This document shows positions 705 to 29,098 of a DNA stretch of 29,225 nt, piece by piece. The DNA lies in the IMG/VR virus record IMGVR_UViG_3300030207_004816, positions 1-29,225 of that record; one strand, given 5' to 3'. The stretch's first letter is position 1, and each line of letters begins with the position of its first letter. This DNA comes from a virus. Its lineage: Duplodnaviria > Caudoviricetes. Position numbers and translations under genes: made by a program. The notes under the pieces were generated by a model. It was not told where the DNA came from. It did not search any database and saw only the letters and a program-made list of their open reading frames with translations.

Positions 705-1345
705 AGATGTACGCAAGCTGGACTGGGACAAAGAAAAACTTGAGGGCACTCAGGGCTCATGGTTGGGGTCTGCTGATGAGTCCAGACACGCTGATCCGTT
801 GCCGTGGCAAGAGTGCTCCCTTGTGGCCTGACGGCACCAATGCTCCATATGTACTGGACAACGGTGCTTGGGGTTGTCACCAAAGAGGAGAACCATTCAA
901 TGACGAAGCATTTATGTGGGCATATGAAACAATAGGTGCTGGTGCTGAGTGGGTGGTCGCACCAGACATAGTTGCTGGTGGGATGGAATCACTTGAGCTG
1001 ACGCGCAGTTGGCTGCCACGTATCGACCACAACAAAGTACTGATTGCTGTTCAAGATGGAATGGTTCCACAACATGTTGACTCTATGGTGTCTGAAAACA
1101 ACGGCATATTTCTTGGTGGCAGTACAGAATACAAGCTCGAATCAATGCAGATGTGGGGTTCTTACTGCCGCAAAAAGGAAGTTCATTTCCACGTTGCGAG
1201 GGTCAACACCATCAGGAGATTGAGAGCATGTCAGAGCGCAGGCGTGGATTCTATAGACGGTTCTAGCGCATCAAGATTTTCGGTTTCAGCAAGCTTGTTG
1301 CCATCAGCAGCAAGACAACGACAACTGTTTGGGAGGAAAAAATGA
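701..1345 (+). CDS. TGT-fold (DpdA-like) deazaguanine transglycosylase candidate
   Basis: Motifs LDNGAW, APDIVAG, AVQDG, IFLGGS, HFHVARVN and DSIDGSS parallel the TGT/DpdA TIM-barrel motifs (DSGG, D, vQG, GG, HxLG, DsxD). Directly upstream of queC with an ATGA overlap. Confidence 0.65.
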   Translation: MKMYASWTGTKKNLRALRAHGWGLLMSPDTLIRCRGKSAPLWPDGTNAPYVLDNGAWGCHQRGEPFNDEAFMWAYETIGAGAEWVVAPDIVAGGMESLELTRSWLPRIDHNKVLIAVQDGMVPQHVDSMVSENNGIFLGGSTEYKLESMQMWGSYCRKKEVHFHVARVNTIRRLRACQSAGVDSIDGSSASRFSVSASLLPSAARQRQLFGRKK

Positions 1346-1941
1346 CGGACACCAAGGAAAGGATTGCACTGCTGTTCTCTGGCGGTATCGACTCAATGCT
1401 GTTGGCCGAGCGAGCTCACAGAAAAGGCACGCTCAAGGCCCTGATATTTATCAACTATGGACAACCATCGTACTTCGAAGAAATGAAAGCGGTTTCGGAA
1501 TGGTCACAAGCTCGAGGCTACACGGTCGATGTAGTCGACGCTGATATTGAAGGCGTCGAAGAATGCATGGCCATTGGTCCCACTGAAGACGGGCTCCGCA
1601 TACTCCCTGGTCGCAACATGGTCATGTGCTCTCATGCTGCAAATGTCGCTGTGGCCAAAGGCTGTAGCACAGTATGGTACGGGGCCAACAAAGACGACAA
1701 AGACTACCCAGATTGCAACCCGCACTTCATATCTGCGATGAATCACTGTTTGCGTGCTTGCATGATTTCTGTGGAAATCGAGGCACCACTCGTTCAAATG
1801 AACAAGAAGCAGATCATTAAGGAGGCCGTCAGTTTAAACATGGAGCTCGACAAGGCTTGGTCTTGCTATGAGTCGGTGAAGTTGAACGAGCCCTGTGGAC
1901 TGTGTCATTCGTGCAAGGAAAGGATTGACGCGGGTGGATAG
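1342..1941 (+). CDS. queC: 7-cyano-7-deazaguanine synthase (QueC family)
   Basis: LFSGGIDS PP-loop, INYGQ, PGRN, YPDC and WSCY..PCGLCHSCKER zinc motif. Confidence 0.92.
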   Translation: MTDTKERIALLFSGGIDSMLLAERAHRKGTLKALIFINYGQPSYFEEMKAVSEWSQARGYTVDVVDADIEGVEECMAIGPTEDGLRILPGRNMVMCSHAANVAVAKGCSTVWYGANKDDKDYPDCNPHFISAMNHCLRACMISVEIEAPLVQMNKKQIIKEAVSLNMELDKAWSCYESVKLNEPCGLCHSCKERIDAGG

Positions 1942-2110
1942 AAAAAGACAACTCAAAACGTATACCCTCCCCTCCGAGGGCGGGTCTTCTTTGCGGGGAG
2001 CGGGTTGGACGCTCATCGCAGAGACACAAGGGGGCTCGTGGAGCTGCAAAAGCAGACCTCGAGTCGATTTACATCCAACACAACAGAAGTTCCGATGGGA
2101 AAAACAATGA
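1934..2110 (+). pseudogene. C-terminal remnant of an XF1762-family (Mom/GNAT-like) protein
   Basis: The peptide LKTYTLPSEGGSSLRGAGWTLIAETQGGSWSCKSRPRVDLHPTQQKFRWEK resembles the XF1762 C-terminus (TY.L..E.G.SLRA.GW...GG.W....RP..D..P.Q.K.RWE). The N-terminal half is missing. The stop overlaps the ssb ATG (ATGA). Confidence 0.65.
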
Positions 2111-2502
2111 ACAAAGTGATTATCAGCGGCAATCTGGGGCAAAAACCTGAGATTCGAGAAGCAAAGAGCGGCATGAAGGTAGGAAACTTCAGTGTGGCCA
2201 CCAACGAGCGCGTCAAGCGTGGAGATGAGTGGACCGATCACACTGAGTGGCACCGTGTTGTCGTATTTGGCAAGGAAGCAGAGAACTGCGAGCGATTTTT
2301 GGACAAAGGGTCCAAGGTCTTGGTCGAAGGCAAGCTTCGTGTCCGTGATTACGAGGACAAGGAAGGAAACAAGCGCAAAAGCATCGAGATTTTGTCCGAT
2401 CGCGTCGAGTTTCTGACCAAACCAGAGAACGGAATGGCTTCTCGACCCGCAGCTCAGCCAGCTGGGGGCTCAAGCTACAACGATGACGAGATTCCGTTCT
2501 AA
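2107..2502 (+). CDS. ssb: Single-stranded DNA-binding protein
   Basis: MNKVIISGNLGQKPE, TEWHRVVVFGK, KGSKVLVEGKL and the acidic C-terminus DDEIPF. Confidence 0.97.
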   Translation: MNKVIISGNLGQKPEIREAKSGMKVGNFSVATNERVKRGDEWTDHTEWHRVVVFGKEAENCERFLDKGSKVLVEGKLRVRDYEDKEGNKRKSIEILSDRVEFLTKPENGMASRPAAQPAGGSSYNDDEIPF

Positions 2503-3482
2503 TGATCGAACGTCACGACATCGACGAGCTCAAACAGAGAATCGGTGACCGAGTTCTTGTCGTCAGCGTGTCTGGCGGCAAGGACAGCACCGCTACTTGT
2601 CTTTACCTGCAGGAGCTTGGACTGTCGTATGAAGCGACATTCTTCGATACTGGTTGGGAGCACGCCGATACTTACAAGTACTTGGAAGAGTACTTGCCCT
2701 CGAAGATTGGTCCCGTCAAAAGGCTGGTTCGACGACAAGAGATGCGGTCTGCAGAACTCGAAGAGCTGGCACAGAAGTATGAAAAACGTTTGGGTTGGTA
2801 CTCACCGATGGTCAGGCTCTGCATCCACAAGGGCGTGTTCCCAGCTCGGCAAAGTCGATGGTGTACCGAACAACTCAAGGTCTTCACTGCTAAAGAATAC
2901 CTACGTGGTCATGACGATGAGCCGATCAGTGTGGTCGGCATCAGAGGTCAAGAGAGCGCCTCTCGCGCCAAGATGAGCGAGTGGGAGTGGTTCGATGCAG
3001 GAGACTGCGAGGTCTGGAGACCGCTCATCAACTGGACCTTCGAGGATGTAATCGACATTCATCAAAGGCATGATTGCTCTCCGAACCCTATGTACTTGGG
3101 AACCAATCCATCGGAGAGGGTTGGATGCTATCCATGCATCTACGCACGAAAAAACGAGATACGTCGAATCGCAGCCAATGACCCAAACCGAATCGAACTG
3201 TTGGCCGATTTGGAGCGAGACATTCACAAGATACGAGTCGCGAAGGCCGAGGCTAAAGGTGAGCAGTTGCGAACCCCGACTGGTTGGTTTCAGTCACCTG
3301 GAGGGGAAATCAACCCCGATACAGGTCGCCGATCTGGTCTGTGCTGGCCAATCGATCGTGTTGTCGACTGGTCTCGCACTAAACATGGCGGGCGTCAGTT
3401 CGAACTTTTTGATGCGCTGCCGAGTGAGCGGGGATGTGTGCGTTGGGGGATGTGTGACACTGGCGCATCCGTGGAGGAATGA
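2502..3482 (+). CDS. PAPS-reductase-family (PP-loop) protein
   Basis: SVSGGKDS, FDTGWEH, RWCTEQLK, GIRGQESASR, WRPLINW and NPMY...RVGCYPC. Confidence 0.88.
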   Translation: MIERHDIDELKQRIGDRVLVVSVSGGKDSTATCLYLQELGLSYEATFFDTGWEHADTYKYLEEYLPSKIGPVKRLVRRQEMRSAELEELAQKYEKRLGWYSPMVRLCIHKGVFPARQSRWCTEQLKVFTAKEYLRGHDDEPISVVGIRGQESASRAKMSEWEWFDAGDCEVWRPLINWTFEDVIDIHQRHDCSPNPMYLGTNPSERVGCYPCIYARKNEIRRIAANDPNRIELLADLERDIHKIRVAKAEAKGEQLRTPTGWFQSPGGEINPDTGRRSGLCWPIDRVVDWSRTKHGGRQFELFDALPSERGCVRWGMCDTGASVEE

Positions 3483-4213
3483 TGGAACAAATGTCGTTGA
3501 TATCTGTCCGTGAACCAGATCAACCAGAGGGGGTCGACCTTCGTAACTGTGGGATCGACGAACTGTTCGACGAGGTTCGAGGAGCTCGTATGGTCTTCGT
3601 GGACCCACCGTGGACCTACAGCAACAGTGGCGACAAGACTCGCAGTGCAGCGAGTCACTACCCATGCCTGACCATGAGTGACATCGTAAGGCACGTTCGC
3701 AGCTCATACGATTGTGCTGCGGACGATGCCTACATGGTCGTGTGGGCCACGTTCCCTTTACTGGCGGAGTGGATGTCGGTATCGACACCGGAAGACATCA
3801 AGTGGACCTACGTGACAGGTGGTGCATGGGCCAAGACTGGAGCACCCGGCAGTGGGTTCCATTGGAGGGGCAACGCAGAGCCGATTCTCATTTATCGAAA
3901 AGGCAAGCCTAAACCCTGCACGACCAAGCTTCTGCGATCGACTCATGTCAGTGAACAGCATCGAGGCAAACACTCGAAGAGTGGAGAGGCACTCGCACAC
4001 AGTGAGAAGCCGATTGCGTACCAAGCCAACATGATTGAGGTGTGGTCCAATCCCGGTGACCTCGTGCTCGACGTTTACGCAGGCCTCTGCAGCGTTGGTC
4101 GTGCTTGTAAGCGGACTGGTCGCAGATACATCGGAGCTGAGATTGATCCAGTTCGATACCGCTCAGCTGTAGACCGCCTTGCACTGGACGGGTCAAGAAA
4201 TCATGGGGTGTAG
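3479..4213 (+). CDS. Amino (N6-A/N4-C) DNA methyltransferase, beta class, MT-A70-like
   Basis: Catalytic DPPW precedes HY..T..DI, WATFP and HSEKP. SAM-binding GDLVLDVYAG...GRRYIGAEID is C-terminal. Confidence 0.88.
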   Translation: MMEQMSLISVREPDQPEGVDLRNCGIDELFDEVRGARMVFVDPPWTYSNSGDKTRSAASHYPCLTMSDIVRHVRSSYDCAADDAYMVVWATFPLLAEWMSVSTPEDIKWTYVTGGAWAKTGAPGSGFHWRGNAEPILIYRKGKPKPCTTKLLRSTHVSEQHRGKHSKSGEALAHSEKPIAYQANMIEVWSNPGDLVLDVYAGLCSVGRACKRTGRRYIGAEIDPVRYRSAVDRLALDGSRNHGV

Positions 4214-11455: not shown

Positions 11456-12118
11456 ATGTCGCTACTCGACGAAGCCGCAAGCAGCCTATCCCCATACAAG
11501 CTCATGATGTCTGAGAAGGCAGGGAAGGAAGTAGATCGCAAGTTCATCATTCAACCCAACATTCTCATGGACATTCTCGAATCCGAGATGGCGAGTCGTG
11601 TCATTGACAAAAAGGCCAAGAAAGAGTTCGCCAAGTATCGGAGCAAAATCAAGAAGGCAGAGTGGACCCTCAAAGGCATGCTGAACTACGTCGACGAGCC
11701 TTTGTATCGGGAACAAATCGGGAAGACAATTGAGGGAATGACTAAGCACATTCGCTTGGTGCAGCCTAACGGTGAGTGGTGCGTGATGGATTACGAGTGT
11801 GCCATCCGACCCAACAAACAAGGTGACGACACCATTATGCTTGCTGTGAAGTTCGTCGATGCAAAGAACGAGCGTGATCTGCAGTACCAGAACGGCGTGC
11901 CGCTGGTCGACGTCAAGGTTGATGTCAGTGGTTCCAACAAGGAACTCATCGAGGCAATCCAAGCTCAGAACGCAGCATCTAATGGTGGCGACCCCGAAAT
12001 GAAAGCCCTACTGAAGCAGCTCGCTGCACTGATGATTCAGAAGGAATCTGAATCTGTTGAAGTCAAGCCTGAGGAACCAGCAGAAGAGCTGGAGATTCCT
12101 ACTGACTTCGAAGGCTGA
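11456..12118 (+). CDS. Hypothetical protein
   Basis: AAGGAG RBS. 220-aa ORF with an acidic tail. Confidence 0.75.
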   Translation: MSLLDEAASSLSPYKLMMSEKAGKEVDRKFIIQPNILMDILESEMASRVIDKKAKKEFAKYRSKIKKAEWTLKGMLNYVDEPLYREQIGKTIEGMTKHIRLVQPNGEWCVMDYECAIRPNKQGDDTIMLAVKFVDAKNERDLQYQNGVPLVDVKVDVSGSNKELIEAIQAQNAASNGGDPEMKALLKQLAALMIQKESESVEVKPEEPAEELEIPTDFEG

Positions 12119-12303
12119 TGCCACTTTACGTATTCAAATGCGAGGACTGCGATGTGAAAGTCGAAGTCCTCCAAGCATTTGGTGATCCCAAGCCCAGCTG
12201 CAAAAAGTGCTCAAAGGACATGAAGAAGGAGATTGCACTGACTAGCTTCGTCTTGAAGGGCGGTGGCTGGGCCAAGGATGGCTACGGTTCAACCAATGGC
12301 TGA
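12118..12303 (+). CDS. FmdB-family zinc-ribbon protein
   Basis: MPLYVFKCEDC...CKKC...SFVLKGGGWAKDGY. Confidence 0.85.
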   Translation: MPLYVFKCEDCDVKVEVLQAFGDPKPSCKKCSKDMKKEIALTSFVLKGGGWAKDGYGSTNG

Positions 12304-12790
12304 TCATTCTTTAGACGACATTGTCCATTCCATTCAGTCCGCTGTTATAGCGGCGACCGACATCGCGGAACGTCATGAACTGGATTCAATCACGAACCAG
12401 GAGTTCTGGGAGCTGAAGGTTGATGAGAATGGAGAACCGATCACTGATGACGACGGAAGACACGTATATGCACCTCGCATGGTCGTCATGGAACTCCCAA
12501 CATGGGAAGATGGAGTACTGGTACACAAAAGAGTTCCGGTCCCGCTCCAATCCCTCACGACTGGCCAGAGCCTTCGAGTGGATACTCTTGAAGTGGAAAT
12601 GTCTGTGGAAATATGCGGTCTTGCTGCGGATAAAAAGAAAGGCAAGTTGATGGTCCGACCATGTGCAAAAACCCCGTCGTGGTTTCAAAAAGAAAGCAAC
12701 GCTGCTAAACTGAAGTTGATCTTCAAGGGCAGTGAGCCCCCAGAGGGTTATGCAAGAATCGATGACCAGCTCATCAAACTGCTTCCGTAG
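12296..12790 (+). CDS. DUF2589-like protein (short paralog)
   Basis: LDDIVHSIQSAVIAA, VPLQSL...SLRVDTLEVEMSV and KLKLIFKGSEPPEG.ARI match the neighbouring gene and the recalled DUF2589 pattern. Confidence 0.75.
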   Translation: MADHSLDDIVHSIQSAVIAATDIAERHELDSITNQEFWELKVDENGEPITDDDGRHVYAPRMVVMELPTWEDGVLVHKRVPVPLQSLTTGQSLRVDTLEVEMSVEICGLAADKKKGKLMVRPCAKTPSWFQKESNAAKLKLIFKGSEPPEGYARIDDQLIKLLP

Positions 12791-12799
12791 GAGTCACTC

Positions 12800-13405
12800 A
12801 TGGCAGATCAACTCGTAAAGATGTCAGACCAGTTTGGTGGTCTTCCCATGGAGCAGCTCATTGGTGGCCCACTGAAGGCCGCTTGTAATGCTCAGACACT
12901 GCTTGCAAAGGCATCCAGCGACTTCATCAAGGACGTCGGTCTCAACGACGATGGAAAGGGCAACCTGTCAGCTCGCACCGTCGACTTTGGCTTTACCAAG
13001 CCAGTGCAAGACGCTGCAGGCAACACGACGATGGAGAAGGTGGACCTGCAAGTTCCACTGCTCGCCATCATCAACACGCCCTCGCTTTCTGTGAAGGAAG
13101 CCGAGGTCCGGTTCACGATGGAGGTCAAGTCCTCCACCTCGAGCAAGACAACTTCGGACAGCAAGGCCGATCTGACTGCTAAGGCCAAGTACAACGCTGG
13201 TCTGTTCTCTTGCGAGGTCACTGTTCATGGCTCTGTGGCTAACCACAGCGAGAACAGCCGTAGCAGCGACAACAGCGCCAAGTACGACGTCAAGGTAGTG
13301 GCTCGAGACGACGGGCCTCCAGAGGGATTGTCGCGCGTTTTGGATATGCTGAACGATGCCATCGCGCCTACTCAAGGTGTGGCACCAGCACCTGCTACCA
13401 AGTAA
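12800..13405 (+). CDS. DUF2589 domain protein
   Basis: AGGAG RBS. GLPMEQLIGGPLKAA..AQ..LA, VPLLAIINTPSL.V....V.FTMEV and PPEGLSRVLDML. Confidence 0.85.
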   Translation: MADQLVKMSDQFGGLPMEQLIGGPLKAACNAQTLLAKASSDFIKDVGLNDDGKGNLSARTVDFGFTKPVQDAAGNTTMEKVDLQVPLLAIINTPSLSVKEAEVRFTMEVKSSTSSKTTSDSKADLTAKAKYNAGLFSCEVTVHGSVANHSENSRSSDNSAKYDVKVVARDDGPPEGLSRVLDMLNDAIAPTQGVAPAPATK

Positions 13406-13410
13406 CGGCC

Positions 13411-13490
13411 CGCCTGGCCCCCCACCCACATCGTCTGTTCCCATCTCGGGACGTGAGCATGGGCGATTCCTACCGGGTGGGGGGTTGGGT
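13411..13490 (+). other. Structured intergenic element (nested stems) between convergent operons
   Basis: CCCCCCACCC (13418-13427) pairs with GGGTGGGGGG (13475-13484). It encloses ATCGTCTGT/ATGGGCGAT and a TCCC/GGGA hairpin. Confidence 0.55.
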
Positions 13491-13886
13491 TTATCGTTTT
13501 TCGACCTCTACGATTTCAATGTCCACCATGCCTTCTTCGGTGCAGTCAGTGACATTGAAAGACACGTCGGGTGGTAAGTCGCTGACTTGTGACAAGAACT
13601 TAAAAGTCGCAGATCGCAATCGACCCACCGACTCGTCATCATCACACTTGGGCGTGATTGTCACTACGGTTGTGGGGACAAGTTCAAGTTCCGGCTCAGG
13701 CGGTGGTAACGGCTCGGGATCAGGCTCGGGCTCGGGCTCGGGCTCAGGCTCAGGCTTGACCTCGACTTCAAGAGTGACTGGTTCAAGTTCGCGTTTTTTG
13801 GTTCGACCATCACCATCGACGGCAAAGCTCAACCCTGCCGGTAAGATGACTAACGTTCCAAAAAAAATCAGAGCCGTGACAATCAT
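13491..13886 (-). CDS. Membrane-anchored protein with (Glu-Pro)n linker
   Basis: Hydrophobic N-terminus followed by KPEPEPEPEPEPDPEPLPPPEPE. Confidence 0.7.
   Translation of the reverse strand: MIVTALIFFGTLVILPAGLSFAVDGDGRTKKRELEPVTLEVEVKPEPEPEPEPEPDPEPLPPPEPELELVPTTVVTITPKCDDDESVGRLRSATFKFLSQVSDLPPDVSFNVTDCTEEGMVDIEIVEVEKR
13711..13755. repeat. Imperfect GGCTCR hexamer tandem repeat encoding (EP)n
   Basis: ggctcg/ggctca units are visible in the sequence. Confidence 0.8.
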
Positions 13887-21976: not shown

Positions 21977-24900
21977 CTAAAACTCGCCTGGGTCAAACTG
22001 GAACTGTTGAGTACGCTGTTCAAATGGGTCTTGATCAATACGGAATCGTTTCCGGTATTCTCGTTTTAGGTCTTTGAGAGCACGTTGTCGTGCAAATTTA
22101 ACGTTCGGCACGAGCTGAGTTCGAATACCAGCAACACCCAAGAGATGATCAATCGGCGTCATGCCCACCTTAGGGCTCAACGTATCTCCCTCAAGGAACT
22201 CAAACTGCCTGTCTTTTTCGTCGGCGAGGCCAAGATCCTCAGCTTCTAAGCGCGCAGCTCGGAGCATCTCCGTGACGCCTTCTACAATACCCAAGTTCGC
22301 TTGGTCGACTTGAGTGATGATGCCCATAGAGCGACCGGTACCAGGGACCTGAAGCAGGTTTCGATATGCCCACCACAGCTTTCCATTTTTGGCATTGAAG
22401 ATTTGTCGACCTTCATCGCCCTCCACTTGCCTCAAGCGGGGGTTGCGGTTGCTTTCACGCTGCACATCGAGGAGCAACCGTAGTTGACCACCGGTAACGG
22501 CCAAGTCCCACTCCATCAGCCATGGAGGCACATTGTTGTACCGATCAACCTCGCCACCGTAGAACGGGTCTACACCCAAGGTGAATACTGCAGGTGCTTG
22601 CCACCAAGGCGTAAGTTTCGTGAACAACATACGCGCAGCATCACCGTCTCCACGAACTGTATCGTACATATCAATCAACAAATTCATCGAATCCATGATT
22701 GGAGTCGGAGGCAACACGTACATGCGAGCATCGTTCACATGCTTGTTGATGATCGGCTTGGCCGTTCCGATGCCCATGCGAGCTTGAATGTATTCGGGCA
22801 AAACGATTTCAGGATCTTCATCCAAGTTTGCCTTGTGCAACCCGTTGGTCAGTCGGAGCTGATTGGTCACCCGCGATGGATCGGTCAGCAACGTGTCGAA
22901 GAACAAATCCAAGTTCTTTCGCATGTAACTGTAGAACATGATGGCATTACGAGCAGTCCTTTGCTCCCACTCAGTCAATGCGCTGTAGTCAAACGCAGCT
23001 CGTCTTGCGAGTCCAGCTGCTTGACCTGGAGACACGCCATCGTTCAAACCATCCACAAAGATCGATACTCGATAGAAGTTGTCGATGGCGGTTGCAACTT
23101 CTGCCAAGTGGTCGTTCCAAGCAGTGGCGAAACGACCTGCTCTTTCACCCAACGTTGGGTTCTCTTTGAGGTACAGCTTAATGTCGTCAGCCATTGTTCG
23201 CTGAGTTTCAGCCTGAATGAAACTGGAGTTCAACCGATAGGCCAGAGCCATGTCTGCAATCTGGTCGGCATTGTAAATCATGCCATTCTTGGCGACCAAA
23301 ATCTTGTTCCCGAAGGGTCGATACGTACCCTCTCCGAACATCCGCGATACCACCGCGCCGACCATCTTTGGGTTCTTGGTCAGCATGGAGAATCCCTTCA
23401 CGGGATTCACAGCAGTGAAGAGCTGCAACGCTCCACCCAAAAAGTTGGCTGTGTAGTACGCAGGGTTGGGGATGAATAGTCCCGTCGTCACACCCCGCTT
23501 GATGTTCGTGGCTGTGATTGGAAAGATTCGTAGAAGGCTCTCAACGGCTTTCGAAACTTTGTTGAACGCTATGACCTTCGGTATTTTTGCGACGTCAATG
23601 AATGGAGCTCCAACATCTTCGACACGCAGTGCTCGAGCCGCATCAGAGCCGTAAGCTTTACCGACTGCTGAAGCTCGAATCAGCGCTTTGTCGATTTCGT
23701 CTTTGATGCCTTGCGGCCCGTAGGTTCGACTGCCATCAGGAAACACGATTTCGGCGAGTGATTCACCTCGCGTCAATGTCCGAACACCGAATCGTACCAG
23801 AGCTTCCTCTGCTGCCAACTGTGCATCCAAATCATGAAAAGTGTCATGAACCTTTGGCCCACGCTCTTCAAACGCAGCAAACCGATACTCAGGACCGGTG
23901 GGAGCTTCTGCTTTTCTTTCAAAAGCCAGCGAACCGTCATCCTTCAAAGCGTATGTCGAGATGTCATCCGACTTGAATATCTGGTCCATGTACTGCGTCA
24001 CACGACCGTAGAACGCATCTTTCCTGTTGATTGCAATATCGGCGCCGGTCGGTGAACTTACTCGACGAGGAATGCGATAGTTGACGCCTGCACCAGGCAT
24101 GCCGTTTTGAATCATGACGTCGTACAGATTCAGCAGTTTATCTTCTGCCATCAATCGTACTGTCATTTCCAAGAACGCTTGAGCTGGACTGAACCGACCA
24201 ATCTTGTCTGGGTCAAAACCAAGACCCGACCCTTTACTTTGACTCAAATCATAAAGCTTCTTCCAACCCGGACCGCCCTGATGAAAGTACCGATACACCG
24301 AAGCAAGTCGATTTGGCTTCACTTTGGCGGGATCGTTCAATTGAGCGGTTTCACCACCAAGTGCAACCAAGATTGTCCGAGCTCGATTTTCAACGTACCG
24401 AGCCTGATGCTCCAGTTGATTTTGAATCGTAAACAGCGACTCTGCAATGTAGTGCCGGTCAACATCACTCAACTTCGATATTGCAGCAGGACTGAGGCCC
24501 TCATCCGTCGTATATCGTTCCAATATGGTCAACGCCGTGTTGACCTCTTCCGATATTCCGTAAAATGTGCCAGTTGAGCACAAGTCTTGCAAAAGTGAAC
24601 GAGTCGACGATTTTGTCAAATACTGGAGTCGACTGTCACCTTCTACAATCGGGGCAGGAGGATTGTCACCTGAACTCAACTTCGGGGTAACATCGTCTGG
24701 ACTGAGCACGTCCTGCCCGCCAAGAATCTCTGTCTGCTTTTCACTGAGTGGTTTTGCTTCAATGTTGAGCGCCAGACCTTCTTTGGATGCAGCAAACTCT
24801 GCATCGATACGAGCGATTTCGGCCTCAGAGAACTGCCTGAATATAGAAAGGATGCCTTCTTTACCCTTCTCCGGTTGCAAGGGATCGATGTTCCCAAGTA

Positions 24901-27900
24901 GAAGCTCAACCTTATCTGGCGTCATCATCATGTCGTCTTCGAGCTGAAGACGAAGCTGATCAAAAATCTGCTCAATCGTTGCGTCTGGGTTGGCTCGACG
25001 AGCATCCCTTGCAATCTTCAGCACATCGTCTCGCACGTTCTGCAGCTGAGATAGCTCTCGCCTCAACGTTTCTTTGAGTTCAGGACGAACATTAGACAAA
25101 GGGTCGTCAAGCTTGAACAACGTCTCAACTTTCGTGATGAAGTTGTCCAAAGGTTTGAATGCGTTGGCAAGACTTGCAACTGGCCCATGCCGAAAAGCAC
25201 CCAGTAGAGAATACGCAAGAGACTTGGAGATGGCCTCGGTGTAAACAGTCCGTCGAGCAAAGGCGCCCGCCTCTACGTCCTGCATCAGCTCAACTACACG
25301 GTTGTAGTTGGTGAATGAAATGGTATCGAGCTTAGCCCCCGGACCAACCAACTCTTGCGGCATTCTGGTCGCGACAAACGGCTCTGATGCAAGTCTTTGA
25401 ATGAACACCTTGAAGTTGGCTTGCTGGCTTTCGTCGAGCTTGATGGTGTTGTTTTTTGCGTCCGCCATGCCTTCAAGCTTCTGAGCACTGAGGTAGGTGC
25501 GGCCGGAGATCTTGCCTCTTGCTTCGATACCCAACACCGACGCCATACGAGCGTTGACGGTTTTGCGGATGCTCTTGGCCTTCTCTCGGGTGACGAAGGA
25601 AGCAGAAGTCAAGTTGACCAAGTCCATGCCACGAAGTGCCTTGGAGGCCTCTTCTTTTTTCATGGTCTCCGCTACGACGTAGCCGATGGCTCTGGCATAC
25701 ACGTCAACAGCATCGACCTCTTGCATGTCGTCAGTGATGCCAAGAGCTTGCTTTACATACTCGGGCTGAGTGTCAATATCCGCAAAAATACGCTTACGGC
25801 CTGTTTTTGCTCGACGACCCTCAGTAATCCGTATGTCTTCATCTACATTGACTCGCACTCGAGTGCCTGGTCGATTGGGTCGATTGATATTGCGAGTGAT
25901 GTTGTCTGGACGGAAAAACCGGTCGGGCCTCAGTATCTCGTTGAGATTGGCTCGCTTCGCAGGTGAAGGGATGATGACTGATTTTGCTTCATCACCCATG
26001 CGTGCGTACACCGATGTCAGGTTTGCCATCAGCTCTCTGATGCCTTGAGCCTCTTGACCAAGTCGTCCGTTTGCTTCGACAACAGTTCGCAACGTCGCTT
26101 CAAACGTCGTCACACCATCTTGAGTAAGACGCTTGTTTGGCATCTTTATGGATGGAGATGGCGAGGTCTCGGTATCAAACTTGGACTTCGATAAAAAATC
26201 AGAGACCCATTTTTTACCCATCAAATCCACGAGCAACGCTTGGTCATTTGCCAAAAGCCGAGTGATTGACAGTGTGTCCTCATCTGCGAAGATGTCCATG
26301 AGCTGCCGGACACTATCCATGCTGATGTTGTCACTTACGGTCTTTTTGGTGCCAATCTTGGTCTGGATTTCGAATGTGGCCGGACCCTCAGTGCCGTCAT
26401 CAAGCTTGGTGGCGACTTTCTTCAGCTTAGTTGCTGCAAAGTAGTCCTCCGGCTCCTTGATTCCTTTGTACAGTTTTTCTGTGCCAGACACGTTGTGAGC
26501 TCGCGTCTCCATCATGGCGAGTAACGTGACCTTCTCTTCTGGGGTCATATCACCGTCTTTGACGAACTGATCGAGCTGCTCTCGTACTTTGATGTACGGC
26601 GCCGAGTTCCGAAGGTCCAAGGTGTCTTCGTCAGCTCCCATGGCAGAGAACGCACGCAGGTTCTTGGTGTACTGATCAGCGTTCTCAACTGAGAGCTTTT
26701 TCAACTGCTCAATGACGTCTTCATATTTGATGCCTGCAGCTGCGAGAACACGCTTGGTTTGTTGGTCAATCTCAAACGGAATTGCGCCTTCCCGAAAATC
26801 AGGTGTGCCTCGACGACCACTCGAAAACAGGTTTGGACCCTCCTCGGTCTCGATGACATGACGTACAGCAGCCTCTGTGACGTCGGCAGCGGTTTCGAAC
26901 ACGTCAGGTACATATCCGTTCTTCAAGCCCTCAGAGGCCTCGTCAAACGTCTTCCCCGCCTGCATCTGATCAAAAATCTGATCGGCGAACTTACGTTCCG
27001 TGTAAGTCAGTGGTTTGAAGTCTGTAGGTACATCCGCCGCTGCAGCACCAGGCTCTGCGTCTTGAGCTGCACGAAACGCATCGTCTTGGTCTAAAAGGCC
27101 CTTAAGGGTTTGCGCGTCGACTTCCTCGGGTAGCCTACGCCTTACGTTGTCTGCAGCAAGTGAGGCGCGCTCATACGTCTTGTAGATGCGGTTGTAGGCT
27201 GCAGGAGAGAACCCTGCCAAGAACGCACGCCCACGGTACCCACTGACATTCAGCTTACGAGTCAGCGAAGATCCCCGTGCTGCAGCTTTTGTGGTGTGAG
27301 CGATGGGGCCGATATGCAGCTTTTCCCAAGGAACCAGAAAGTCCAAAGCGCCGCCGATGAACAACTTGGTGTGAAACTCCGGCGTTCCTCGTTCGAAACC
27401 CTGCTGACGAGCTTCGTTGGTCAGGTGTGTCGTGAATCCAACATTTCCGGTCTCGATGTTGGCGAGTGCTCGAGACAACCACGTAGAATCGAGGTCTCGC
27501 ATGCCATAGTTGAAGTAGAAGTCTCGAGACGCTGGAGTAATCGCCTGTATAATCGTGCCTGGAAAACCGGGCAGAATCGATAACTCTTCCGGCAAACCGT
27601 TTTCTCTGAGCTTTCTTTTGACGACCTCTTCGGTAAGACCAAATGTAGTGTCAATCTCTGCGATGCCTTCGGTAAAGACGCCCAACATGCGGAGAGCCTT
27701 GCCCAAGGTAGTCTCCATCACCTTAATTTCATCTCCAACCTTTTCGGCGCTGAACAAGGTCGACTCAATCCCTTTTTCAAGAACCCGTGCAGCTCTACCA
27801 GCATCACCCTTTGCTTCAATGACTCGGTTGGCGCTCTCAACCGCTTGGTCCAACACGTTTACCGTCGAAGGCACGGAGCCTGCCCACACCTCTTCGGGTA

Positions 27901-29098
27901 ACGCGCCAAATGAAACGTCATTCAACGCCCCTTGAATATCTTTGTCGGACGCACCCTCTTTCACCAATCGTGCAGCGTTCCTGAGCTGATTGTTGTTCGA
28001 AAGCGTGAACCTCTCATCGTTTGCGCTTACGGACTTTTTGAACAAGTCCACCGATGGTTTTTTGATTTGAAATCCGAGTGGCAGATCATCGAATGATTGC
28101 TGCATCAAAATGGCGCCGAGTTCATCCTTGAGCTCAGACTTTATTTGCTGATCACTCATACCCTTTTCGTGAGCAAGCTCGACGGTCTCGACAAGACGCT
28201 CAAAGTTTTCAGTAGGCAGAGTAAGTCGAGTAGATTTTAGGTATGCCTCTCGTTCATCTTCTTCCAAAAACAAGTTGGCAAACATAGCAGGCATGTTGAT
28301 CTTGACTGCAGCTCTTTCGACCAACTCAGGAATGTTCTTGATACCAAAAGGAATGTACGGGTCATCGAAGAACGAAACCTCATCATCGACGCCTTCTTGT
28401 CGATCTCGTCCCCAAAAAGACTGACGGTCGATACCAATGCCTGCATCTTTGGCTTCGTCGACGGTCATGGGGTCACTGCCTTGCCACACTTTAGCAAGTA
28501 CAGACATCGTTCCTTCTTCATCGAGCATGGCGCGAATCTCACGCTCTGCCTTTCGGTTCTCCTCCATACGCATTTCGAATGCCTGCTGAGGAGTCTCCGA
28601 ATCCCGAAACGGCTTGAGCCTGCGAGTGCCGAATACTCGACCACCAGCTGCCAAGATGCCCTTGGCATCCGGGTCGGTTGGCTCATCAAGGTCACCAACC
28701 ATCTTGTAGATCAAGGCTGTTTTGATTTTTTCATCCGCTACCGCTTCGCCTTGCTCCCGTGTTTTTCCCTTGTTTAGTTCTCCTTGAAGGATGTGGTCAT
28801 AAACTTCGAGTCGGAAATCCCGAATATCGCTCGGCTGAGCAGGATCCAGCCTTAGTTCGGTACCAGGCAGTGGCGTCAGAGGATCCCTCAAATCCCTTTG
28901 CCTTTCCTCCTCTTCTATTTGCTCATCAGTCAACGGCGGAAGCGGACTGCGGTAGAACTCCGCCAGCTCTTTATCAATCTGATCGTCTTGTGCAGGCACA
29001 GTTTTGGACAACTCGGCAGAGTAGTCCGCCATGAAGTCGTCAAAGTCATAGACACTATCTTCGTTCGACAGTGTCAATGGTTCGTTCTGTTCTGCCAC
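21977..29098 (-). CDS. Giant (2373-aa) probable internal virion / DNA-ejection protein
   Basis: Uninterrupted 7.1-kb ORF in the late region. The C-terminal IDNFYR..F..GL..G.S..QAA..ARRAAFDYS.LT..E motif resembles large phage internal (polyvalent-type) proteins. Confidence 0.7.
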   Translation of the reverse strand: MAEQNEPLTLSNEDSVYDFDDFMADYSAELSKTVPAQDDQIDKELAEFYRSPLPPLTDEQIEEEERQRDLRDPLTPLPGTELRLDPAQPSDIRDFRLEVYDHILQGELNKGKTREQGEAVADEKIKTALIYKMVGDLDEPTDPDAKGILAAGGRVFGTRRLKPFRDSETPQQAFEMRMEENRKAEREIRAMLDEEGTMSVLAKVWQGSDPMTVDEAKDAGIGIDRQSFWGRDRQEGVDDEVSFFDDPYIPFGIKNIPELVERAAVKINMPAMFANLFLEEDEREAYLKSTRLTLPTENFERLVETVELAHEKGMSDQQIKSELKDELGAILMQQSFDDLPLGFQIKKPSVDLFKKSVSANDERFTLSNNNQLRNAARLVKEGASDKDIQGALNDVSFGALPEEVWAGSVPSTVNVLDQAVESANRVIEAKGDAGRAARVLEKGIESTLFSAEKVGDEIKVMETTLGKALRMLGVFTEGIAEIDTTFGLTEEVVKRKLRENGLPEELSILPGFPGTIIQAITPASRDFYFNYGMRDLDSTWLSRALANIETGNVGFTTHLTNEARQQGFERGTPEFHTKLFIGGALDFLVPWEKLHIGPIAHTTKAAARGSSLTRKLNVSGYRGRAFLAGFSPAAYNRIYKTYERASLAADNVRRRLPEEVDAQTLKGLLDQDDAFRAAQDAEPGAAAADVPTDFKPLTYTERKFADQIFDQMQAGKTFDEASEGLKNGYVPDVFETAADVTEAAVRHVIETEEGPNLFSSGRRGTPDFREGAIPFEIDQQTKRVLAAAGIKYEDVIEQLKKLSVENADQYTKNLRAFSAMGADEDTLDLRNSAPYIKVREQLDQFVKDGDMTPEEKVTLLAMMETRAHNVSGTEKLYKGIKEPEDYFAATKLKKVATKLDDGTEGPATFEIQTKIGTKKTVSDNISMDSVRQLMDIFADEDTLSITRLLANDQALLVDLMGKKWVSDFLSKSKFDTETSPSPSIKMPNKRLTQDGVTTFEATLRTVVEANGRLGQEAQGIRELMANLTSVYARMGDEAKSVIIPSPAKRANLNEILRPDRFFRPDNITRNINRPNRPGTRVRVNVDEDIRITEGRRAKTGRKRIFADIDTQPEYVKQALGITDDMQEVDAVDVYARAIGYVVAETMKKEEASKALRGMDLVNLTSASFVTREKAKSIRKTVNARMASVLGIEARGKISGRTYLSAQKLEGMADAKNNTIKLDESQQANFKVFIQRLASEPFVATRMPQELVGPGAKLDTISFTNYNRVVELMQDVEAGAFARRTVYTEAISKSLAYSLLGAFRHGPVASLANAFKPLDNFITKVETLFKLDDPLSNVRPELKETLRRELSQLQNVRDDVLKIARDARRANPDATIEQIFDQLRLQLEDDMMMTPDKVELLLGNIDPLQPEKGKEGILSIFRQFSEAEIARIDAEFAASKEGLALNIEAKPLSEKQTEILGGQDVLSPDDVTPKLSSGDNPPAPIVEGDSRLQYLTKSSTRSLLQDLCSTGTFYGISEEVNTALTILERYTTDEGLSPAAISKLSDVDRHYIAESLFTIQNQLEHQARYVENRARTILVALGGETAQLNDPAKVKPNRLASVYRYFHQGGPGWKKLYDLSQSKGSGLGFDPDKIGRFSPAQAFLEMTVRLMAEDKLLNLYDVMIQNGMPGAGVNYRIPRRVSSPTGADIAINRKDAFYGRVTQYMDQIFKSDDISTYALKDDGSLAFERKAEAPTGPEYRFAAFEERGPKVHDTFHDLDAQLAAEEALVRFGVRTLTRGESLAEIVFPDGSRTYGPQGIKDEIDKALIRASAVGKAYGSDAARALRVEDVGAPFIDVAKIPKVIAFNKVSKAVESLLRIFPITATNIKRGVTTGLFIPNPAYYTANFLGGALQLFTAVNPVKGFSMLTKNPKMVGAVVSRMFGEGTYRPFGNKILVAKNGMIYNADQIADMALAYRLNSSFIQAETQRTMADDIKLYLKENPTLGERAGRFATAWNDHLAEVATAIDNFYRVSIFVDGLNDGVSPGQAAGLARRAAFDYSALTEWEQRTARNAIMFYSYMRKNLDLFFDTLLTDPSRVTNQLRLTNGLHKANLDEDPEIVLPEYIQARMGIGTAKPIINKHVNDARMYVLPPTPIMDSMNLLIDMYDTVRGDGDAARMLFTKLTPWWQAPAVFTLGVDPFYGGEVDRYNNVPPWLMEWDLAVTGGQLRLLLDVQRESNRNPRLRQVEGDEGRQIFNAKNGKLWWAYRNLLQVPGTGRSMGIITQVDQANLGIVEGVTEMLRAARLEAEDLGLADEKDRQFEFLEGDTLSPKVGMTPIDHLLGVAGIRTQLVPNVKFARQRALKDLKREYRKRFRIDQDPFEQRTQQFQFDPGEF

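Follow-up and report, generated by a model that had tools for sequence, protein, structure and literature searches.

Pore formers of the aerolysin/ETX-MTX2 class carry Ser/Thr-rich stalks beside an amphipathic hairpin with an aromatic tip. According to a preprint on Pepco (Trypco1/Trypco2), these are single-component proteins of ~117 aa that form homo-oligomeric beta-barrels of 9-10 subunits and are activated through C-terminal cleavage by an adjacent trypsin- or caspase-like protease fused to a sensor (bioRxiv 10.1101/2025.11.14.688446). The CDCL toxins of Bacteroidota are described as a CDC/MAC-like class in which a platform paralog recruits a pore-building paralog, with activation by proteolysis on the target surface and a lipoprotein immunity factor (PMC11169675). 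In type 10 secretion and holin-endolysin cassettes, a membrane-active gene is reported to be paired with a peptidoglycan hydrolase that lacks a signal and can be exchanged for others (PMC10109510, PMC13284979). In the literature that was searched (subscription journals and bioRxiv supplements lie outside it), DUF2589 received two passing mentions only, with no function given, and its accession PF11655 appeared in no text, in keeping with the initial annotation of the phage DNA considered here, which knew of no assigned function for the family.

The window, i.e., the entire virus record of 29,225 bases that we analyzed, is 43% complete (relatives are about 66-75 kb long) and is divided between a plus-strand left arm, with genes for a helicase, SSB, primase, a VapE-like helicase, YqaJ and RecT, and a minus-strand right arm of lysis-like genes and large structural-like genes. 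From recT, the plus-strand run proceeds through a 220-aa unknown and an FmdB-family zinc ribbon and is closed by two DUF2589 genes, both on the plus strand and separated by 9 nt: gene A (12296..12790, 164 aa), which lacks an amphipathic hairpin and is predicted to encode a partner subunit, and gene B (12800..13405, 201 aa), which has a long hairpin and is predicted to encode the barrel-forming subunit. The start of A is the ATG at 12296; the ORF finder also offers a longer alternative from a GTG at 12263, and A homologs are mostly 163-164 aa. Between B and the convergent lysis/structural block lies a G+C-rich inverted repeat (13411..13492; -47.8 kcal/mol, z -2.94, with 1 of 200 shuffles as stable) with terminator-like matches at 13464-13487, and this is probably the terminator that closes the plus-strand operon. 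A promoter scan stayed at chance level (4 found vs. 3.1 expected). Elsewhere in the window, a 2373-aa ORF on the minus strand (21977-29098) has no Pfam or PHROG match, and QueC-like, PAPS-reductase-like and DNA methylase genes are clustered on the plus strand at 1342-4213, possibly as a DNA-modification set. Several close homologs come from Tara, and runs from the same study are labeled marine metagenome.

The stop of the zinc-ribbon gene (12118..12303, plus strand; TIGR02605, PF09723) overlaps the start of A by 8 nt, and a zinc ribbon is present in 54 of the 80 best B-anchored viral loci. We nevertheless rejected it as an obligate third part of the module because it exists without the pair (downstream of the lysin, with no A or B match, in L261, L271, L283, L287, L288, L291, L298 and L307) and is often apart from A, with other genes in between. 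It is a frequent neighbor and no fixed part of the module.

Both proteins exceed the gathering cut-off of 23 bits for Pfam DUF2589 (PF11655), A with 54 bits (E 3.2e-14) and B with 150.7 bits (E 5.3e-44), so the family assignment proposed at the outset is confirmed. A direct BLASTP of A against B gave no significant match (E 2.7); by HHalign, profiles of the two families match over their full length (probability 98.8, E 1e-16, 17% identity), and this match takes in the three elements that the initial annotation had listed as common to both: the helix at the N-terminus, the VPL..SL.V strand and the PPEG..R helix. Judged by these profiles, the two adjacent genes are distant DUF2589 paralogs, as had been claimed. 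Their AlphaFold models (pLDDT 78.7 and pTM 0.53 for A, pLDDT 70 and pTM 0.53 for B) share the order of elements: each starts with a long helix, continues with a hairpin at ~56-86 and then a long and a return strand, and closes with a helix at the C-terminus. Neither protein has a 19-residue window with hydropathy above 1.0, and hence neither has a hydrophobic segment or transmembrane helix; by hydropathy alone, the supposed lack of a signal peptide also holds. Where B has its hairpin, A was said to have a short loop. The segment is indeed shorter in A (33 residues at 107-139, positions 12614..12712 on the plus strand, vs. 52 in B) and is without the Ser/Thr-rich alternating pattern (median S/T 14%), but it consists of a loop, a short strand at 118-122 and a second loop, and its median length in bacterial A proteins is 50 residues.

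Searches of the PDB by sequence, PHROGs, NCBIfam and PADLOC returned no match for A or B, and Foldseek with the B monomer model matched no solved structure (best E 0.58). Outside DUF2589, the ESM Atlas returned unnamed clusters only (0.77 and 0.76 for B, 0.85 for A). Some B homologs carry an insertion of 110-190 residues in the head hairpin (P0250, P0262, P0372) and others have long helical C-terminal extensions (P0273, P0276, P0287, P0304); Pfam matched none of these added parts, and among 30 long B homologs it revealed no informative fusion and a single weak dCache match.

What distinguishes B is an insert at residues 110-161 (13127..13282, plus strand) in which Ser/Thr-rich stalks flank alternating strands: a stalk at 111-120, an alternating strand at 121-131, an aromatic/Gly turn, a second alternating strand at 136-146, and a second stalk at 147-159. 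The median Ser/Thr content is 33% in the insert vs. 11% in the remaining domain, and both strands alternate at p<0.05 in 87 of 103 B-family rows (105 rows minus two with gaps; the segments were picked after the column profile had been viewed), which upholds the observation that B alone carries a Ser/Thr-rich amphipathic hairpin. Across the 105 sequences, hydrophobic residues occupy odd positions at 101-109 and 123-131 and even positions at 136-146 and 160-168, with the aromatic/Gly turn at 132-136. These describe two 35-residue strands (97-131 and 136-169) whose hydrophobic parity is unbroken across the polar stalks, with the turn midway. Of the 105 rows, 92 have an insert of even length, 97 a stalk of 13 residues and 99 a stalk of 15, a constancy that the aligner can favor by its placement of gaps.

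In an MI-APC analysis of 249 rows (effective 137), covariation is strongest along the registers i+j = 267 and 269, for the head strands as well as for the insert, with mean z at these registers of 1.8 and 2.7 in the head strands and 1.56 and 1.12 in the insert, and at most 0.9 at other registers (top pairs 130-137, 120-149 and 116-151); such a signal can rise from kinship or from the alternation itself, and is the same for pairing within and between subunits. The peaks at 267 and 269 suggest that the insert is a single continuous antiparallel hairpin centered on the conserved turn. In the AlphaFold2 model of the B monomer, the head is folded confidently and the insert is disordered (pLDDT <50 at 112-156), as the hairpins of pore formers commonly are in monomers. 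About 11 alternating residues per strand suffice to span a bilayer, and the alternating, aromatic-tipped stretch of B is limited to ~11 residues at the end of the hairpin. The putative membrane-facing residues are small, mostly Ala, Val and Leu, with a mean hydropathy of 1.2-2.2 on strand 1, and would also suit a soluble tube. Because a two-stranded hairpin of 35 residues is unlikely to be stable by itself, the natural interpretation is that several pack side by side to form a barrel; that the tip crosses a membrane is a further step, to which the 11-residue alternating belt and the aromatic turn point. The anatomy of the insert is compatible with a barrel-forming hairpin, for which the evidence from sequence is good and the bacterial context suggestive.

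With the aerolysin/ETX-MTX2 class, B shares the amphipathic hairpin between Ser/Thr-rich stalks and the aromatic tip, but the pair differs from that class in its helix-first topology, in having no signal-like N-terminus, and in its obligate hairpin-less partner. The link to aerolysin that had been drawn for this locus gained no backing: profiles, PDB sequences and Foldseek with the B model gave no match of A or B to aerolysin sequences or to the aerolysin core fold, and neither profiles nor Foldseek with the B model detected MACPF/CDC/CDCL or gasdermin domains. The likeness to the CDCLs lies in the two-paralog logic, with no detectable homology to A or B. Like Pepco, A and B are small cytoplasmic proteins in which a helix comes first and each subunit has one long hairpin; unlike Pepco, they are larger, are paired, and have a second hairpin and a C-terminal helix added. 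A 25-sequence Trypco2 profile aligned in register over the hairpin, if weakly (probability 9.2 with the B family and 17.2 with the A family; E 0.0036 and 0.0014), and no Trypco/Pepco Pfam family matched A or B at E 0.01. No trypsin or caspase family occurs among the 37 window ORFs or among the 86 of 273 non-redundant bacterial neighbors scanned, where the peptidases near DUF2589 cassettes were sporadic M20, reprolysin and MA only. Since the partner protease was not found in the window or these 86 neighbors and the profile match is weak, we do not assign the pair to Pepco; by analogy, the pair may act like Pepco, which is its nearest mechanistic analogue.

Close homologs number 1110 for B and 134 for A, and the two genes are rarely seen apart. 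A accompanies B in 78 of the 80 best B-anchored viral loci, the other two of which start within 65 nt of B, and B accompanies A in 75 of 79 A-anchored viral loci, the other four of which end within 249 nt. The gap between A and B is 6-9 nt in 61 of the 75 phage loci measured, and the remaining 14 have an inserted gene. B is 80-98% identical across the 80 best viral loci, vs. a median of 29% for RecT, a contrast that is biased because the loci were ranked by B. For A, the median pS is 0.55 and the median pN 0.039 (25 phage loci). Deposited phage records yielded one match in 50,697, an unannotated 4-kb record.

The genes found between A and B (in L001, L003, L005, L006, L011, L014, L018, L019, L020, L022, L042, L044, L065 and L078) are unrelated, mostly of low complexity, and 83-363 aa long. 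Six of them have similar C-termini, with the motif D..LMENMR[KQ]K or ..MRRKA, a possible tag for packaging or export, and one (L019:5592-5978) may, by its motif, be S-adenosylmethionine decarboxylase-like. A gene inserted upstream of A (L009:5258-5491, L012:5219-5491) begins with nine residues identical to those of A, which suggests that newcomer genes recombine in at the start of A and use its ribosome-binding site.

Despite this pairing, the two genes are accessory in the phage group. Among records chosen by their lysin, the pair is present in 8 of 29 that are at least 45 kb long (some of the 29 are distant phages) and in 5 of 19 that are at least 90% complete. It is missing from the syntenic relatives L265, L266, L270, L286, L289 and L307 and from the complete G166, all of which keep the same lysin, and a distance of ~30 kb or more, in record coordinates, separates it from the lysin in G157, G161, G162 and G172. 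We therefore rejected a core lysis gene as an explanation, the pair being accessory and untied from the lysin. Neither a tyrosine integrase nor a large serine recombinase was found in five near-complete carriers, in a search that detected its controls, and for this reason the carrier phages are probably lytic. The suggestion that the pair provides abortive defense from a prophage is weakened by the same result, with no integrase match in any of the five relatives for the two families searched.

DUF2589 extends well beyond phages, with 1697 clusters at 50% identity and 477 matching stretches among species genomes, and all bacterial counts that follow refer to the best 80 of these 477. A was found in 77 of the 80 bacterial loci (the three misses are near contig ends) and 78 contain a further gene, C. 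The C protein is ~88 aa long and strongly conserved, with invariant R, G, N, C, P, G, F, Y, F and P (e.g., L173:3936-4205), and as it has no Pfam, NCBIfam or PADLOC match, it appears to represent a family, associated with DUF2589, that has not been described before. Many of these cassettes also contain a third paralog, DUF2589-like but highly diverged (L198:7036-7680, L199:5154-5693), and L193 and L231 have two B-type genes each. An exported protein, E, occurs in 33 of the 80 loci, with a hydrolase alongside in 27. A cell-wall enzyme or peptidoglycan-binding protein is encoded on the same strand within 3.6 kb in 50 of the 80 (GH108 in 16, GH19 in 13, PG_binding_1 with an unassigned catalytic part in 9, CHAP in 7, muramidase or PG-binding in 3, and a VgrG3-like C-terminal domain in 2; we take the bacterial GH19 and VgrG3-C proteins to act on peptidoglycan), a raw count in that the 50 loci fall in about six lineages. 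No cell-wall enzyme was detected in the other 30, and many marine Gammaproteobacteria carry A-B-C alone. Patatin accompanies the cassette in 3 of the 80 loci and a colicin-like DNase in 2.

Two observations concern the flanks of bacterial cassettes. In Lachnospiraceae and Eubacteriaceae (L166-L178), genes for DUF6765 (phospholipase C-like), DUF4231 (a two-TM protein), a CHAP amidase and an integrase flank the cassette, which suggests a mobile element. An ORF near the cassette of Telluria antibiotica (L209:7378-8010) has a Pfam match to ribosome-inactivating proteins (E 2e-8).

The phage form is without C, the third paralog, E and the hydrolases. C was sought in the window, in 159 viral loci and in 8 near-complete phage records (0 of 8), and was not found, with the positive control detected; the bacterial hydrolase families are likewise missing from the phage loci. 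In a tree of 35 rows, the phage B proteins group in a single clade (100/98) whose sister is a 7-kb MAG contig, in which C is likewise missing. On present sequences, what the phages carry is a reduced version of the A-B-C cassette that in bacteria is linked to cell-wall enzymes.

Our tentative reading, with a confidence that falls a little short of even, is that A and B form a beta-barrel pore of two components that acts on the infected cell's membrane. B would oligomerize, which we consider probable, and its Ser/Thr-rich hairpin would extend into a long barrel whose amphipathic tip crosses the host inner membrane from the cytoplasm; insertion of the hairpin into the membrane is favored by a narrow degree. 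A, whose binding to B is rather likely, would join the assembly by way of the shared head and, without inserting itself, serve as nucleator or brake. Both proteins would be made with the recT operon before lysis, and a probably lytic phage would use the pore to modify the membrane of its host cell, e.g., to exclude competing phages, which is the best single guess for a role and, as the weakest step, a doubtful one.

The pore reading draws support from the anatomy of the hairpin, its covariation, the disordered insert and the near-obligate pairing of A and B; from the bacterial cassette, which often adjoins envelope-acting enzymes; from the in-register, if weak, Trypco2/Pepco profile match; and from the position of the pair at the end of the plus-strand recT operon, opposite to the lysis genes. 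Against it count the lack of a structure match, a Pepco probability of only 9-17%, the small size of the membrane-facing residues, and the 30 of 80 bacterial loci in which no cell-wall enzyme was detected, the other 50 being spread over just about six lineages. The earlier proposal of a pore subunit with a hairpin-less partner keeps its footing in hairpin anatomy, covariation and pairing, but no known fold was matched. Because C is kept in 78 of the best 80 bacterial loci and is missing from phages, the way the phage pair works may differ from that of the bacterial set, and a pore formed before lysis could damage the phage's own replication unless tightly restrained.

An alternative, which we regard as unlikely, is that the barrel is an export conduit: in bacteria it would replace a holin and let cell-wall enzymes that lack a signal pass the inner membrane, and in the phage it would give accessory help with lysis or with exporting small phage proteins. 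None of 46 neighboring hydrolase ORFs in bacteria has a hydrophobic N-terminal stretch, vs. 24 of 34 for the control protein E, and only 7 of 45 hydrolase loci contain a small membrane ORF, a possible holin. These loci resemble type 10 secretion in setting a membrane-active candidate beside an interchangeable signal-less hydrolase, and differ from it in that the membrane part is a predicted beta-barrel, with no helical holin, and that the phage pair is untied from lysis genes. The putative endolysin situated 1.4 kb from the pair in the window and the unrelated genes between A and B, six with a similar C-terminal motif, also speak for export; however, the lysis block of the window is on the opposite strand and has its own holin-like and spanin-like genes (weak PHROG matches), syntenic relatives keep the same lysin without the pair, other genomes carry the pair far from it, and the phage loci have none of the bacterial hydrolase families. 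Nor does the pair conform to a helical holin co-oriented with its hydrolase, since neither A nor B has a transmembrane helix and the pair, encoded on the strand opposite to the lysin, is dispensable where that lysin is kept. It is similarly improbable, if conceivable, that A-B-C is an undescribed, cytoplasm-assembled, hetero-oligomeric beta-barrel translocon that would move swappable signal-less enzymes (six cell-wall enzyme families, phospholipases and DNases) across membranes without a holin or a known secretion system, and that marine phages captured its C-less two-gene core to control the infected-cell membrane.

A and B might instead polymerize as a soluble cytoplasmic tube, filament or cage, i.e., a scaffold or a conduit for DNA or protein that never enters a membrane. 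Stacked barrels, too, could be built from long Ser/Thr-rich strands with small residues facing outward, neither protein has a transmembrane helix, and replication and recombination genes surround the pair. Yet the stretch that alternates and has an aromatic tip spans no more than ~11 residues at the end of the hairpin, the neighbors in bacteria are mostly envelope-acting, and Foldseek with the B model retrieved no tube or filament protein, so that we consider such a polymer distinctly unlikely.

With lower expectation still, the phage pair could be a decoy that, being C-less, mixes into and jams a host A-B-C cassette that would otherwise kill the infected cell. C is missing from all eight near-complete phage records, no integrase was found in the five relatives searched, and the pair, like many counter-defense genes, is accessory and under purifying selection (pN/pS from 25 loci for A and only 2 for B). 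A decoy would have no need of the full hairpin that B has kept, however, and the phage B clade has no close bacterial partner except the C-less MAG contig; moreover, A, B, C and the third paralog match no defense model in PADLOC or NCBIfam.

That the pair is an outward weapon, freed at lysis and perforating neighboring cells in the manner of the two-component CDCL toxins, is very unlikely, because, although the bacterial neighbors (cell-wall enzymes, a phospholipase, a DNase) are typical antibacterial effector classes, E could be an immunity protein in the 33 loci that have it, and the large head-hairpin insertions of some B homologs (P0250, P0262) could serve targeting, the phage has neither E nor an effector beside the pair, its B has no added domain, one E family accompanies unrelated hydrolases, unlike a cognate inhibitor, and the benefit to a phage of killing neighboring hosts is unclear.

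A and B are a real, conserved, accessory two-gene module of an uncharacterized family, and the phage pair, as the smallest form of the cassette, is also the simplest form to test. If the tentative pore reading is correct, DUF2589, a widespread family for which we found no function in print, would contain a new family of two-component beta-barrel pores. Such pores would explain by what route many cell-wall enzymes that have neither a signal nor a holin could get to their target, and probably lytic marine phages would be employing a bacterial pore module inside their hosts.
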